Part shown: in pieces, positions 32,629 to 38,900 of the stretch
How the letters are laid out: every line of letters begins with the position of its first letter
Position numbering within the stretch: position 1 is the stretch's first letter
Source: Nitrosopumilaceae archaeon
GTDB lineage: Archaea > Thermoproteota > Nitrososphaeria > Nitrososphaerales > Nitrosopumilaceae
DNA length: 64,000 bases
Assembly (NCBI GenBank): GCA_965214835.1
Contig: CBDCCK010000002.1
Span: 2,144,001 to 2,208,000 of the forward strand
Direction: 5' to 3'
Notes under the pieces: model-generated
The model's input: only the letters and a program-made list of their open reading frames with translations
What the model was told of the DNA's origin: nothing
Database searches by the model: none
Made by a program: the position numbers and the translations under genes

Positions 32629-33732
32629 ATGGCAGGCCGGATAAGGGTGGGTCTTGTAGGCATAGGGAACTGCTTTTCGGGCCTGATTCAGGGCATCGAA
32701 TACTATAGAAAAAATCCCGAGCAGCGCGTTATTGGGATAATACATGACAGGCTAAGCGATTACGGCATTCATGATATTGACTTTGTGTGCGGATTTGACG
32801 TCGGGGAAAACAAGGTTGGCAAGACAATCAACGAGGCAATATACGAGTATCCAAACATGGTAGACTGGATCCCGCGGGAGCAAATGCCAGAAACCGAGGC
32901 CCGGGTCTACGAAAGCCCGGTCTTGGACGGGGTGGGCCTCTGGGTCGAAAATCGCGTGAGGCCGATCAAGAGCGAGAAGACCACCGAGCAGATAGCAGAG
33001 GAGTCTAAAAGGATAATCAGGGAGACCGGCGCCGAAATCATCGTCTCCTACCTGCCGGTGGGCTCTGATGATGCTACGAGGTTCTGGGCCCAGGTCTGCC
33101 TTGAGACGGACACTGCGTTTGTCAACTGTATTCCGTCGTTTATCGCATCCGATGAGGCCTGGGCAAAAAAATTCCGGGAAAAAAACATCCCGTGCATCGG
33201 TGATGACATAAAGGGGCAGGTCGGCGCAACCATCGTCCACAGAACCCTGGCAAAGCTGTGCAACGATCGCGGCACCAAGATTGAAAAGACCTACCAGATC
33301 AACGTCGGCGGCAACACCGACTTTTTGAACATGAAGGAGCAAGAAAGGCTGCTAAGCAAGAAAATCTCAAAGACCGAGAGCGTGCAAAGCCAGCTGGACC
33401 AAAGACTGGACGATGATCAGATATACGTCGGGCCATCTGACTTTATCCCGTTCCTAGGAAACACAAAGCTTATGTTCATGAGGATTGAGGGGAGGCAGTG
33501 GGCGAACATCCCATACAACATGGAGGTCCGGCTGGACGTAGACGACAAGGCAAACTCCGCTGGAATTGTAATTGATGCAGTACGGCTTGCAAAGATCGCA
33601 CTGGACAGGGGCATCGGCGGCCCGATAAGGCCTGCTAGCGCGTACCTGATGAAGCATCCGATCGAGCAAATGTCCGACGTTGCAGCCAAGGTCGCCTGCG
33701 AGGACTTTGTAGCCGGAAGGCAGCAGCCCTAG
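32629..33732 (+). CDS. ino1: Inositol-3-phosphate synthase
   Basis: GIGNC, SYLPVGS, GDDIKGQVGATI, GGNTDFLNM, DKANSAG. Confidence 0.95.
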   Translation: MAGRIRVGLVGIGNCFSGLIQGIEYYRKNPEQRVIGIIHDRLSDYGIHDIDFVCGFDVGENKVGKTINEAIYEYPNMVDWIPREQMPETEARVYESPVLDGVGLWVENRVRPIKSEKTTEQIAEESKRIIRETGAEIIVSYLPVGSDDATRFWAQVCLETDTAFVNCIPSFIASDEAWAKKFREKNIPCIGDDIKGQVGATIVHRTLAKLCNDRGTKIEKTYQINVGGNTDFLNMKEQERLLSKKISKTESVQSQLDQRLDDDQIYVGPSDFIPFLGNTKLMFMRIEGRQWANIPYNMEVRLDVDDKANSAGIVIDAVRLAKIALDRGIGGPIRPASAYLMKHPIEQMSDVAAKVACEDFVAGRQQP

Positions 33733-34207
33733 TCCGAAAGCATGCGCCCCTTGTACCGTGGAACGTCAAGACCTGCCGCATCTGGCGGGCAGCTCCCCAA
33801 TGCTACCGTAGCCATCACACCTTCCACGTGAATCAGGTTCGCGATCAGGGCACTGCCGCCTAACACCCTGCCCTCCATGCTAACATCCGCGATAGGGATT
33901 TCTGTTTGGCGCCTTGACCTGCGCGTGCGTGTACCGGGGATGGGATCTTGCCCCTCAGGCGACACCGGCAGTCTGGGGTCTTTACCACCGTATCCCCTGC
34001 GCCGTACCACGGGGTGCGCCATCTTGCCGCGCAGGCCATCAGGCACCGCAAGCGCCTTTATGCCTTCTGCGGTACGGGGCCTTGCGTATCTTGCTCGCAA
34101 TTACAGGGTGCCTCAGCATGCACTCGGCTAGACTGCTGGCAGGCTCCATGCCCGGATGCAGTAGCCTGTTGAACACATGATAAAAACGCCCCCGCCGTAG
34201 CTAGGGT

Positions 34208-34325
34208 GATGGATCAACCCCTCGTTATGCATGTGCTTCGCGCACTACCTGTTGAATGGGGATATCCGAGCTGCTGTGTTCCTGTGCTACGCGCACTGAT
34301 GGATGAATGCAGCTTCTGATCTGTC
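34208..34325 (+). ncRNA. Predicted bridge RNA with target-binding and donor-binding loops
   Basis: Two stem/internal-loop/hairpin modules; guides GTTATGCA + CCTGTTG match the target, TGTGTTC + ATGGATG match the donor junction; closing stem GATGGATCA/TGATCTGTC. Confidence 0.85.
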
Positions 34326-34358
34326 AAACCATATCCAAAAGGAGGTGAAAGAAAAGGA

Positions 34359-35436
34359 TTGAGAAGCATAGGAATAGACATTGGAAAGAGAAAATGCGCA
34401 GTGTGCGTCATCGACGCCAAGGGACACGTGCTAGAGGAGGGCTCGTATAACAACACGTACAAGGAGGCATCAAAGCTTGCTGCACGACTGAAAAAAGAGT
34501 ACAAAAAGTGCCAGGCCGCGTGCGAGTCAACGGGCAACATGTGGCTAAAGACGTTCAGGGCGTTTGAGGATCAGCATATCCCCATACTGCTTGCAAACAC
34601 CCTCAAGATGAAGATAGTATCAGAGACCAGTGTAAAGACTGACCCGATAGACGCAAGGAAGATAGCCGACACGCTCAGGGCCGGAATGATACCACGATGC
34701 TACGTGGCATCAGCAGAGCTGAGGGATGTCAGGGAGCTGATGAGGTACAGGATACGGATGGTACAGGAGAGGACCGCAGTCATAAACGGGCTGCACAGCT
34801 TGGCTTGACAAGTACGACATAGCCATAGATGCATCCACGATGTACTCCAAGAAGGCCATACGGAAGATCTCCGATACCAGGCTGAGCATGCCAAACGATG
34901 ACAGGATACTGGCAAGCTGCACTAGGAGGATTGTACACGTCACAGAGGAGATAGACCAAGCAGGGGAGGACATAGGAAGACAGGCAGGATCGAACGAGGA
35001 TGCCAAGCTGCTGTTGAGCATGACGGGAATAGACACCTTTGCAGCAATGCTGCTGATAGCAGAGATCGGTGACATAACCAGGTTTCCATCGCCGAACCAG
35101 CTTGTGTCCTGGGCCGGCATGTGTCCCCGGGTGTACCAGTCGGGGGATCGCGAGTACCACGGCCACATGAAAAAGGATGCAAACCGCAGGATCAACTGGC
35201 TGATGATCCAGATAGCCAACGTCGCCGTACAGCACGACGACAGGATGAGGGAGTTCTACGAGAGGGTCCGCAAAAGGAACGGCAACAACCACGTCATAGC
35301 GATAACGCATGTTGCAAACAAGATGCTCAGGATAATCTGGCACATGCTGACGACAAAGACTGCGTATTCATCGCGCAATGCTGCCCTGTACGACAAGAAG
35401 ATCAAGAGGGTGACAGAACTGGCGGGAACGGCATAG
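34359..35436 (+). pseudogene. IS110 DEDD recombinase with +1 frameshift at 34802-34803
   Basis: IGIDIGK, CESTG, KTDPIDA; C-terminal EIGDITRF, YQSG catalytic-Ser motif; GGAGGTG RBS. Confidence 0.88.
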
Positions 35437-35982
35437 GATTGCCACCTTCCTCCCCCACCCACCCACCCAATGATCCGCCCGCACCTCGGCAGGTGCGACA
35501 GGACTGGCTCATGCGTATTGCTAGCGTTAGCTATAAAGCACGGCCCGGCCGACTAGGCACGGATCAGAAGACGAAAGGAACGTCGCCATGTTACTGGCGG
35601 GCGTTTTACCATGGATGCATAACCGTGCCTGAACGCGTAAAAGTAGCCAGTTTTTCGTGCCTAAAATCGGGGTTATGCAACAAGCTAGGATGCAGCGAGT
35701 GTACATAAATCCCGATGCACCCTCAGGCTTTGGTAAAGCTCTTGCATCCGGCCCCTCATTTTTGCCGGATCTTCGGCCTGTCTTATTTTTTGATTGCATC
35801 GATGCCTGGCAGGCAGCGCTGCATCTGAGATGCCCCGATTCTTACCATGCGTGCCGCTTACGAGGGCGTCATGTGCCTGGGAGTGACTGCAACGAGAAAA
35901 TTACGAGCACTACAATAATTGTCATACTAGTCAATTAAACTTGTTCATAACTGATTATCAGCCCAAACTACAACCTTTATCA

Positions 35983-38900
35983 TTGGTACACGTCAAGAAG
36001 GTGGATATTTTTGGCTTCAAGTCGTTTGGGTTCAAGAACACCACCGTCAGTTTTGAGCCCGGCCTGGTGTCGATTTCCGGCCCTAACGGGTCGGGAAAAA
36101 GCAACATACTGGATGCCATTATCTTTGCAATGGGCGAGAACCGTCCCAAGGTCATGAGGGTGGACAGGCTTCGCTCGCTGCTGCACGATATAGAGGGGCA
36201 AAGACGCGGACCAAAGCTGGCCCGCGTAAACGTCACCTTTGACAACTCTGATCGCAAGATCCCCGTGGATTCTGATACCGTGGATATTACCAGGGAGATG
36301 GACGACAAGGGGGACAATACCTACTATCTTAACAAAAAACAGACCAACCGCAGCCGTATCCTAGACCTGCTTGATGTTGCAAACGCCGGACTCAACCAGC
36401 TAAATGCAGTACAGCAGGGAACCGTAACTAGAATCTCCGAGTTTTCTCCTGAGGAAAAAAGGCAGACCATTGAGGATCTGATAGGCCTTTCATACTTTGA
36501 TCAAAAAAAGACCGAGGCCGTAAAACAGCTTGACGAGGCTGACAGGCGGCTGGAGATTGCGCTGGCAAGAATGGGGGAGATCAAAAAGCAAATTGACGAG
36601 CTAGAGGAGGAGCGCAACCAGAAGCTTCGCTACGACGTGCTGGAAGGGGAGATCAGCAGGCTAAACGCAATATCTGCGGCAAGCCAACTAAAAACGATCA
36701 GGGCATCAAAGTCCTCCAAGGAACAGGATCTCGGCGCCGCCGTGGCCGACGGCAGGCGGCTTGATCAGGGGCGGACTGCAATCCGGGATGAGATCAAAAA
36801 ACTCGACGCGGAAAAATCCAGCTTTATGGAGGAGGTAAACGCATACAACCAAGCCAAGGCAACGATTGACTCTGAGCTTAGCGCTGCGATGCGGGCCTAC
36901 GAGGAGGTCAACAGCACCGTGGTGGCCGCAGAGAAAAGGGCCTCCCAAATCGCGCAAAGAGTCCCGGAGGTCAAGGACTCCGTCCAAAGACTGTGCGATG
37001 AGCGCGGCCGGATTGGCTCACAGGCATCTGAAATCAAAGACACCGTGTCTCAAATCGAGGCGTCCCGGGGGCAGATTGACTCTGAGCTCCGGGAGCTAGA
37101 CGACCTGCTCTCTGACGTGCTGGGCCGGCAGTCTGAGATCGCCAAAAAAAAGACCGAGGTTGACGGCAAGATTGGCGCACTGACTGAAAAGCTCAACGCC
37201 AGCAGGGTGGCGCTATCCGGTGCAGAGTCTGAAAAAAACGACACTGACAAGAAAATCTCGTCTACCGTGTCTGCCCAGTCACAATACAAAGACCAGTCAC
37301 GAAAATTCTCAGGGCTTTTGTCAAGCTTTGAGAGAAAGATTCGCAATCATACCAGCTCCATCCGCGAGATAAAGTCCCAGCTGTCCGCCTACGACTCCAA
37401 GCGCGCAAAAATCCAGGGCGAGATTGACGAGATCAATCTGATCTTGGAAAAGTCCACAAAGGCAGCTGCGCAGTATGACACGAAAATCCGCGTAGTCAAA
37501 AGCATAATGCACGAGGATTATTCCATTGCACAACTGCACGAGGACGGGCAAAGACTCGGAATAGACGGACTGGTCTATAAAATGATCTCATGGGATAAAA
37601 AATACGAGCGGGCCGTCCTGGCAGCCGGCGCCGACTGGATAAAGGCCTTCGTTGTCCAGGACTTTGCGACCCTTCTTGGCCTGGCAGAGGTGGCGCGAGA
37701 AAAGAGGCTTCCAAAGCTCAAAATCATCCCCATGGAGGCAATTCCAGACTTTGAGATGTCGCTGCCCGGGGGCGGGGGCGTTCTAGGCGTACTGTCTGAC
37801 TTTGTCAGATCCGGGCCCGAGCATGCAAAGCTGAGGACGTTTTTGTTTGGAAACGTCGTCCTAGTCGACTCGAGGGAGGCAGCCTACAGGGTCTCAAAGT
37901 CCGGTTATCGCGCAGTCACGATGGACGGCGAGCTGTTTGAGGCAAGGGCCAGCGCCGTCATAGTGGACATCAACTCCAAGATCTCAAAGCTTACAAAAAT
38001 CATAACACTGAGCTCGTCCGTTGACGGGTTGCTCCAGTCGATATCCCTGCTGAAAAAATACATAATCAAAAAGAGGCACGGGCTCAGGAGGATAGAGGAC
38101 TCCATCTCCTCTACTAGGGAACGCCTTGGGCTGTCCGAAAAGGAGCTGGCCTCGACTGAGCAGAGCTATTCTGACCTGATGCGGAAGGCAACTGAGATCT
38201 CCGAGATGCTTGCGACCTTTGAGCGCCGGCTGTCTGGATACTCCAAAAGGAGGGAGCTGCTCGTGGCAACTGCCACCAGGGAGGCGTCCGTCATCGAGTC
38301 GCTCGGTGAGCGCATTGCAATGATCCGGGCAGACTATGCAGACGGGGAGCCGTCCAGAGTTGCCAGCGAGCTGGAGAGGATCAGCGAGGGCAAGTCCTCG
38401 CTGGAGCGGAGGCGGACCGACATCCTTGCCGAGCTGGATCGCCACTCCTCGAGACTGGCAGCCGTTAATGCCAACGAGGCAAAGGCGCAGGGCCAGATTG
38501 CCAGCCTTGGGGATGAGATATCGTCCCTCGGGGAGGAAAAGGCCGAGCTGGAGGCCAAGATTCAGGACTCTTCCCGGCTCCGGGAGGAGCACAATGCAAG
38601 GCTCGTCCAGCTCAGGCAAAGGGAGCAGGATCTGATTGCCACCTCTGGAACGTCGGTATCGAGACTCAGGGAGTACGATGACCGGCTGCGTGAGCTAAAC
38701 GACCAGGACAGGGCCATGACACGGCAAATCGGCACCCTTGAGCGCCGATCTGACTCCCTGTCGCGTGATCTGAGGGATCTCGGCGAGCGCGAGGCCGGAC
38801 TGCTCAAAACCCTGGACTCTTTTGGATTTGACGAGAACACCGATACATTTGACGTCGGACCACTGCTGGCAGGCCTGCAGTCCGAGCAGCGCTCCCTTAC

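Follow-up and report, generated by a model that had tools for sequence, protein, structure and literature searches.

RNA-guided recombination by insertion sequences of the IS110 and IS1111 groups has been known since 2024. IS621 and its bridge RNA were described by Durrant et al. 2024 (PMC11208160; structures 8WT6 and others), and the seekRNAs of the IS1111 elements ISEc11, ISKpn4 and ISPa11 by Siddiquee et al. 2024 (PMC11187229). In the latter paper the match to the top strand lies 5′ of the match to the bottom strand in IS1111 seekRNAs, the guide order of the IS110-type ISEc21 is opposite, and ISMtsp17, ISHvo10 and ISAcp5 are listed as exceptions in their RNA-side layout, ISHvo10 having long non-coding regions on both sides. 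Sub-terminal inverted repeats of 7–17 bp are given as the defining trait of the IS1111 group. Here we describe a member of this family in a 64,000-nt stretch (the window) of the genome of a Nitrosopumilaceae archaeon. Coordinates are positions in the window, where all features lie on the plus strand, unless prefixed by G000 (the 3.2-Mb genome itself) or C2 (its contig). The host had been supposed to be a thaumarchaeon, and an archaeal amoA gene in the genome (E 1.4e-115) indicated an ammonia-oxidising archaeon. Nucleotides 34172–35617 very probably constitute an IS110-family element of an archaeal branch nearest to ISHvo10, with a left end encoding a two-loop bridge (seek) RNA that guides the recombinase.

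The ends of the element were paired from its copies, giving 1446 bp when counted with the right-hand TG. As read from the sequence, the left junction was GCCTGT-TG followed by AACACA, and the right junction ATGGA-TG followed by CATAACC. The left target GCCTGT with the TG core (34170–34171) occupied 34164–34171 and adjoined the left end AACACA (34172–34177); the right end of 181 nt (35437–35617) carried CCATGGA and the TG core (35616–35617) at its terminus and adjoined the right target CATAACC (35618–35624). The rejoined target CCTGTTGCATAAC occurred as an empty site four times in the genome. TG was present at both junctions but only once in each of these four sites, indicating a shared core dinucleotide and no target duplication. 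Joining the ends of the excised element gives the donor ATGGA-TG-AACACA, of which AACACA is the right half in the circular form.

The insertion lies within a small palindromic repeat (TAGCCTGTTGCATAACC...GGTTATGCAACAGGCTA), in its terminal repeat. The left target belongs to this terminal repeat, and the remainder (ending in GGTTATGCAACAAGCTA) follows the right target within 35618–35687, as judged from the sequence and from genome copies; an unbroken copy lies at G000:C2:3110700–3110785. The limits 34162–35687 proposed for the element in the initial annotation turned out to be those of this palindromic repeat. By blastn against the own genome, the right-flank palindromic repeat had more than 25 copies at about 78–95% identity, and the left flank (34110–34163) was itself repeated, with about 15 further copies at 84–87% identity. 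The one joint detected in contigs, from 35687 to 34162 (8 letters between), was considered as a circle and rejected; it is actually the target repeat in tandem with another copy.

Sub-terminal inverted repeats were found at 34182–34196 (AAAAACGCCCCCGCC) and, inside the right end, at 35596–35607 (GGCGGGCGTTTT), the pairing being AAAACGCCC(CC)GCC with GGCGGGCGTTTT. In 24 related elements such repeats were complementary over 8–14 nt. Their sequence varied widely among sub-families (AAAACGCCC, AAAACATCC, TAACCACCCC and others) while complementarity was kept, which argues for base pairing, of RNA or DNA, rather than for a conserved protein-binding sequence.

The left end of 187 nt contained an outer stem and two stem-loops, then a ribosome-binding-like motif (GGAGGTGA, 34341–34348), kept in relatives and located 10 nt 5′ of a TTG start codon. 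The predicted bridge RNA of about 118 nt (34208–34325) was delimited by folds, an RNAalifold consensus, compensatory changes and covariance-model matches. Its outer stem GATGGATCA/TGATCTGTC (34208–34216 with 34317–34325) encloses a target-binding loop (34218–34261; base stem CCCC/GGGG, hairpin 34233–34245), whose guides vary among elements and track their flanks, and a donor-binding loop (34269–34314; base stem AGCTGC/GCAGCT, hairpin 34284–34296). Nearly the same GUGC-hairpin caps both loops (GTGCTTCGCGCAC, starting at 34233, and GTGCTACGCGCAC, starting at 34284). Four guides of 7–8 nt occupy equivalent positions in these two look-alike loops. In the first, the 5′ guide GTTATGCA (34224–34231) matched the right target and the 3′ guide CCTGTTG (34248–34254) the left target; in the second, the 5′ guide TGTGTTC (34275–34281), the reverse complement of the left end, matched that end, and the 3′ guide GATGGATG (34298–34305, containing ATGGATG at 34299–34305) matched the right end. 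The top strand (right half) is the complement of the 5′ guide, and the bottom strand (left half) that of the 3′ guide.

The guide, hairpin and outer-stem strings of the initial annotation were all found in place, and a single-sequence fold of 34204–34329 returned the structure described there (−41.7 kcal/mol, z = −2.16, with 4 of 200 shuffles equally good). A longer fold (34172–34360) was not significant by itself (z = −0.85). When the 187-nt leader was shuffled 20,000 times, all four matches of at least 7 nt to the target and donor junctions never recurred, and three of them did so in 25 shuffles. The RNA had been sized at about 120 nt and called compact; the size is right, while such compactness is not remarkable beside the functional seekRNAs of 58–96 nt reported in PMC11187229. 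An A-rich sequence at 34180–34187, about 25 nt 5′ of the outer stem, is possibly an archaeal TATA box, from which the RNA might be transcribed, perhaps as the mRNA leader of the recombinase gene.

In the mechanism that we propose, the strands of the first loop would pair with the two target halves and those of the second with the joined ends ATGGA-TG-AACACA. The RNA would bind the DEDD/serine recombinase, the excised element would form a circle, and the RNA-loaded enzyme would bring circle and target together. Strand exchange at the shared TG would then leave no target duplication. The targets are the ends of other repeated elements in the genome.

Blastn against the own genome revealed three sub-families, as well as fragments. 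Family A, to which the window copy belongs, had eight copies of 97.7–100% identity with different flanks; family B had three copies (84–92% identical) and family C two full-length copies (about 66% identical). The target guides of family A (CGTTATGCA/ACCTGTTG) stood with the flanks CCTGT-TG ... TG-CATAAC, the left flank being exactly GCCTGTTG in five of the eight copies, TCTGTTG in two and ACTGTTG in one. Those of family B (TCATTTTCA/CGTAGTTG) stood, in its intact copy, with AGTAGT-TG ... TG-AAAATG, and those of family C (GTCTTCCCA/GACTTCTG) with the left flank TTACTTC-TG and, in one copy, the right flank TG-GGAAAA. Families A and B were identical in donor guides, ends and RNA scaffold and differed in their target loops. 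The donor guide and right end were GATAGATG and CATAGATG in family C, compared with GATGGATG and CATGGATG in family A; together with a third pair, GATAGGTG/CATAGGTG, these 3′ donor guides and right ends (the latter set from multi-copy alignments) shifted in step.

Sites predicted from the guides occurred 4 times in the genome for family A, 23 times for B and 61 times for C, against about 0.1 expected for a 13-mer. The predicted B site, CAGTAGTTG joined to AAAATGTACCCC (e.g. C2:506939 and 717877), and the predicted C site, GGTTACTTCTG joined to GGAAGACTG (e.g. C2:8813 and 477305), were termini of other abundant repeat families, indicating that the insertions of each sub-family are directed to the ends of other repeats, which are probably mobile elements. 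Further IS110-family genes of the genome were only about 30% identical (e.g. C2:311780–312847, 1472973–1473965, 1547883–1548872 and 2027714–2028556), from which it appears that several distinct lineages of the family coexist there; altogether 45 protein matches were found in the genome.

A protein search detected homologues in 13 of 41 related genomes. Proteins of 61% identity in another genus (G010) and of 49% identity in the same genus (G004) accompanied the same RNA scaffold with other guides: in two G004 variants the 3′ target guide TTTGTG stood with the left flank TTTGTG and GTCGTG with GTCGTG, and in G010 the guide TTCATTTG matched its flank at 8 of 8 positions. At two G010 loci (L022 and L041) the initial 8 nt of the left end were missing, and TTCATTTG, a left flank equal to the guide, directly adjoined GAAAAAC. 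They look as though TGAACACA may have been lost between two TG dinucleotides and, as they share a longer flanking repeat, may represent one event that was duplicated afterwards.

Twenty diverse RNAs were aligned on five helices, and 94.1% of 538 cells were paired, compared with 29–49% for slid partners. Changes on both sides were seen in 12 of the 27 base pairs, none of 500 shuffles was as good, and RNAalifold independently predicted the same five helices. The covariation establishes the helices of the RNA. A covariance model built from this alignment found 24 copies in the own genome and matches in 20 of 151 genomes sampled from the same class (12 of 48 genera), a count that includes the unpublished G157, which was left out of later analyses.

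Guides were read from 53 aligned covariance-model matches. Nearly all 3′ target and donor guides ended in TG and most 5′ target guides in CA, indicating that the family shares the TG core. The target guides were otherwise very diverse, and the 3′ donor guide was conserved (GATRGRTG). The left flank was compared in 40 elements, after removal of same-genome duplicates with the same guide, of one row with a 6-nt guide and of rows with less than 75 nt upstream. The 3′ target guide matched the 75 nt upstream at 7 or more of 8 positions in 22 of the 40 elements but in only 42 of 1418 cross-pairings, and at all 8 positions in 5 elements against 5 cross-pairings; the match ended mostly 23–30 nt 5′ of the RNA. 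Right ends were located in 24 of the 53 matches through the donor guide and the sub-terminal repeat, giving 14 unique 9-nt guides. Eight of these agreed with the right flank at 5 or more of 7 non-core positions, compared with 13 of 289 cross-pairs, and several of the mismatches were G-U positions. The initial annotation had proposed a bispecific guide RNA with a target loop and a donor loop, and had named covariation of guides with insertion sites in homologues as a check. Such covariation was found within the own genome and among other genomes, along with compensatory changes in all the helices that it had named, and the correspondence of guide and flank holds in many independent elements.

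These data bear on two other readings of the leader. The internal copies of target and ends might act as DNA, either as protein-binding sites or as leftovers of end duplication, and there would be no guide RNA; the matches are indeed seen in DNA alone. However, in many elements unrelated sequences have replaced the guide strands along with the flanks, while the flanking helices keep pairing through compensatory changes, a pattern characteristic of an RNA structure whose guide strands are free; moreover, the protein family has been shown experimentally to use such RNAs. We consider a role as DNA highly improbable. In the window sequence, box-like strings at both ends of the RNA, GUGAUGG (34206–34212) and CUGA (34316–34319), would also suit a C/D-box-like guide RNA with a kink-turn, in keeping with the proposed kinship of IS110 recombinases and Nop5; a common ancestry of bridge RNAs and C/D RNAs has been proposed in a preprint (10.1101/2024.06.21.599552). 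But CUGA was replaced by CCGA in G010, G004 and other relatives. This change was compensated, GGAUCA/UGAUC becoming GGAUCG/CGAUC (column pair 20–130 was A-U in 13 rows and G-C in 6), indicating an ordinary Watson–Crick stem. The kink-turn reading of the outer stem was rejected, and a C/D-box-like RNA at this place is extremely improbable.

At least four complete elements of 367–373 bp, and truncated ones too, consisted of a left end, the RNA and a right end and carried no gene. These mini-elements (L006–L009, at G000:C2:639991–640363, 2955616–2955986, 3124154–3124520 and 2139579–2139947) had complete two-loop guide RNAs with their own target guides and, being gene-less, must move in trans. In the one ending at 2955986, its own guides fitted the flanks at 13 of 17 positions (a hand count from the strings), and the guides of families A and B fitted clearly worse in a hand comparison, no full-length family of the genome having guides that suited these flanks as well; in the remaining ones the fit was ambiguous or the ends had decayed. 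A small-RNA module that also occurs solo is known from the IS110-family ISPpu9 of Pseudomonas putida, where Ssr9 is thought to spread via the transposase in trans, is located downstream of the gene and is not required for transposition (PMC12288879). The ISPpu9/Ssr9 modules resemble the mini-elements of about 370 bp in having an RNA module apart from the transposase gene; unlike Ssr9, the mini-elements retain the two ends along with an entire two-loop guide RNA.

The leader could instead be a mere regulatory structure in the 5′ untranslated region of the recombinase mRNA, the matches to the flanks being secondary. The structure does immediately precede the ribosome-binding-like motif and the start codon, and no oligo-T terminator was read after it, so that the RNA is probably co-transcribed with the gene. 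Yet a regulatory leader would have no reason to let its loop strands track the insertion site or to be retained in gene-less mini-elements, and a position in an mRNA leader is compatible with guide function. We regard regulation alone as very unlikely.

The element is related to IS621 in several respects. Both recombinases belong to the same Pfam and NCBIfam families, with DEDD and serine residues; in both elements the RNA lies in the left end upstream of the gene and forms two internal-loop stem-loops, the first for the target and the second for the donor; both RNAs read the left half from the bottom strand and the right half from the top strand, and both elements target repeated sequences. 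In IS621, however, the 5′ loop strand pairs with the bottom strand (PMC11208160), whereas in the archaeal element it pairs with the top strand. The core is TG instead of CT. The archaeal RNA of about 118 nt is closed by an outer stem, whereas that of IS621 has 177 nt and an extra 5′ stem-loop. Sub-terminal repeats are long here (9–14 nt) but absent or of 2–3 bp in the IS110 group (IS621-like). IS621-like elements have a long left end with the RNA and a short right end; the 187-nt left end with its RNA fits this, and the right end of 181 nt is long too. An IS621 architecture had been proposed for this RNA; its two loops for target and donor agree with that proposal, but the order of the guides is reversed and is that of the IS1111 seekRNAs.

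With the IS1111 group the archaeal element shares the sub-terminal inverted repeats and the position of the top-strand match 5′ of the bottom-strand match. It differs in that the RNA and the long non-coding region of IS1111 elements lie downstream of the gene and the RNA of the archaeal element upstream, and in that many IS1111 members are reported to have their donor guides in a multi-loop, whereas both loops here are simple internal loops. The transposase of IS4321, a member of this group, aligned over its full length by BLASTP (22% identity, E 2e-14). IS4321 and IS5075 are said, going by the title of a paper by Partridge and Hall from 2003, to target the ends of other mobile elements, and the archaeal element is like them in inserting into such ends.

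The closest named recombinase was that of ISHvo10 from Haloferax volcanii plasmid pHV4 (NC_013966.1; BLASTP, 30% identity over 335 residues, E 2e-49), and the best protein matches among 72,556 plasmid records were haloarchaeal, including the annotated ISHvo10 transposase; placement in the clade was by pairwise scores to ISHvo10, IS4321 and IS621. ISHvo10 likewise has long non-coding regions on both sides of its gene, and an outer stem of 10 bp (GCGUGAAUCA/UGAUUCACGC) closes the upstream one. Its 3′ donor guide, CAUAGGUG, equals the right end CCATAGGTG, its sub-terminal repeats have 14 nt and, on the 3′ side of the first loop, a 9-nt string equals its left flank (GTGCTGACT). A Haloarcula relative had the outer stem too. 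This likeness of the haloarchaeal RNAs rests on sequence reading and single folds, and these RNAs, ISHvo10 included, were not matched by our covariance model at E < 0.001. ISHvo10 differs in its 174-nt RNA with larger hairpins and comes from a different phylum and habitat. The initial annotation had considered the combination of sub-terminal inverted repeats with an upstream RNA unusual, and so it is; it is not unique, since ISHvo10 follows the same plan, and it is better taken as a hallmark of an archaeal branch with one named member already. In the literature searched, no description was found either of the ISHvo10 RNA, which the supplements of PMC11208160 and PMC11187229, outside that search, may list, or of a bridge RNA in the archaeal group studied here, for which the same supplements may hold predictions.

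The recombinase of an intact sister copy (P0001, about 357–359 amino acids) matched PF01548 (DEDD_Tnp_IS110, E 7.9e-30), PF02371 (E 2.5e-24) and the NCBIfam model NF033542, "IS110 family RNA-guided transposase" (234 bits, cut-off 140), which establishes the protein family. It aligned distantly with two recombinases of known structure, those of IS621 (in part; phmmer, E 1.3e-8) and ISCro4. Aligned motifs were IGID, the E in CESTG/EATG, KTDPIDAR with KTDTVDAR, and GLCPRVYQSG with GLTPRRYESG, all kept in the open reading frames (ORFs) of the window copy. We take the residues in IGID, CESTG/EATG, KTD..DAR and Y.SG to be the catalytic DEDD and serine.

In the window copy the gene was divided into two ORFs. 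ORF1 (34359–34808, 149 amino acids) carried the DEDD RuvC-like domain (PF01548, E 7.5e-29) and ended at a TGA through an extra G at 34802/34803 (AGCTTGGCTTGAC, compared with AGCCT-GCTTGAC in the intact copy). ORF2, in the +1 frame (34786–35436; first ATG at 34840, 198 amino acids), carried PF02371 (Transposase_20, E 2.1e-26) and the serine motif ...PRVYQSG. The extra G was present in all eight family A copies and in two of the three family B copies (10 of 11), the exception being C2:513383–514459; an uninterrupted frame was found in 1 of 13 full-length copies. Contigs of four public runs from four studies spanned 34671–34954 without an indel, indicating that the frameshift is not an assembly error. 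The frameshift noted at 34802 in the initial annotation is thus real, and the repair called for there is unnecessary, since G000:C2:513383–514459 is a natural intact copy. In the only close relative from another genome (G002, locus L027) the element was truncated and ended before the frameshift site.

The split gene bore signs of constraint. When the window copy was compared with a family B copy that has the same extra G, the ratio of non-synonymous to synonymous substitution rates (dN/dS) was 0.29 for ORF1 and 0.28 for ORF2 (27.7 synonymous and 30.3 non-synonymous changes in the latter), indicating purifying selection on a gene that would be expected to be dead. The +1 frame was open from 34786 and overlapped ORF1 until the stop at 34806–34808. 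The overlap site read GCU-UGA-C, where a +1 shift gives ...HSLA-DKY... and the intact copy has ...HSLL-DKY...; this context presumably resembles known +1 recoding sites. The frameshift may reflect recoding, a two-piece enzyme, or dead genes that the intact sister moves, in which case gene conversion would blur the picture of selection. Under the last of these, family A, the window copy included, would be a non-autonomous relic with a real RNA and a dead gene, spread in trans by the single intact sister. The near absence of uninterrupted frames fits such a relic, as do the gene-less mini-elements, which are necessarily moved in trans, and the identity of families A and B in donor guides, ends and scaffold would let the family B protein load the family A RNA. 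The dN/dS values, which gene conversion could mimic, and the +1 frame that stays open across the stop (34786–34808) speak against it. We judge the relic a real possibility, if slightly less probable than its contrary. In the RNA-guided element that we favour, the frameshifted window copy would still move, either through recoding or by using the recombinase that the intact sister encodes.

Signals of another kind were noticed inside the right end, namely a conserved TATA-like sequence (GCTAGCGTTAGCTATAAAG, 35520–35539) and, about 24 nt beyond it, GGATCAGAAG (35561–35570). In the close sub-clade, GGATCAGAAG was complementary to the outer stem's 3′ strand, with the best match at a constant place, and family C altered both partners of this pairing (GAGA with TCTC), amounting to two compensatory changes. 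Across 36 rows the complementarity was not above background, 11–12 of 14 pairs including G-U being reached elsewhere within 1.5 kb; another place in the window copy tied with GGATCAGAAG for complementarity to the outer-stem strand. The right-end box may be a promoter reading across the circle junction, with an alternative pairing partner, both operating only in the circle. All these features can be joined into one picture, of an archaeal clade with a permuted closed RNA, a two-frame recombinase, self-guided mini-elements moving in trans and a circle-junction promoter. Its RNA would lie upstream of the gene and combine the outer stem with the IS1111-type guide order; the most successful lineage would produce its recombinase through +1 recoding at GCU-UGA-C or as two polypeptides; the gene-less elements of about 370 bp would use the recombinase in trans toward their own sites; and the right-end box would transcribe across the circle junction into the RNA, coupling guide production to excision. 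As a whole we hold this picture to be rather unlikely.

Several points weigh against an RNA-guided element at 34172–35617. The guide RNA is predicted from DNA sequence, no RNA run being found to contain the stretch, and the recombinase gene of the window copy is split by the frameshift. A scan of 33500–36500 against Rfam 15 gave no matching family, with three chance-level matches (E 5–8.6), one of them merely a GUGCUUCGCGCAC hairpin. The circle junction ATGGATGAACACA had no occurrence in the assembly, and no such joint was present in the contigs of the four runs, where its absence is weak evidence since contigs drop rare forms. Some flanks do not fit: a family B copy (1519219, minus strand) has the right flank TG-GATGTC, which disagrees with its guides, the flank of a family C copy (2665851, plus strand) scores 2 of 9, as does G010 locus L034, and 18 of the 40 elements fell below 7 of 8 positions on the left flank. 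The misfitting right flanks of one B and one C copy may stem from later rearrangement or off-target insertion. The right ends were located by the donor guide itself, and the right-end test is therefore not independent for the donor; the 53-row alignment was model-fitted and its elements are related, and the statistics therefore overstate independence. The guide–flank numbers are illustrative rather than exact probabilities, and the pattern as read in these sequences is unambiguous.

The mechanism itself is not new. What the locus adds is an archaeal branch that mixes guide order and repeats of the IS1111 type with an RNA position of the IS110 type and a closed two-loop RNA, a layout that is widespread in ammonia-oxidising archaea. 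The branch is well populated, with up to about 20 copies per genome, and traits that define one or the other of the two bacterial groups are mixed in its layout. Its pairing rules can be read from dozens of natural re-targeting events: a TG core, about six variable positions on each side, and tolerance of G-U pairs. An RNA of about 118 nt, its 357-amino-acid recombinase and three natural guide sets in one cell of a non-pathogenic archaeon offer material for tests of programmability, and proponents of a descent of C/D-box ribonucleoproteins from IS110 systems are provided with archaeal bridge RNAs. Of most interest are the series of natural guides, the frameshift that copies share under purifying selection, and the guide-carrying mini-elements. 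Thaumarchaeal genomes are shaped by the elements of this branch, which insert at the termini of other repeats.

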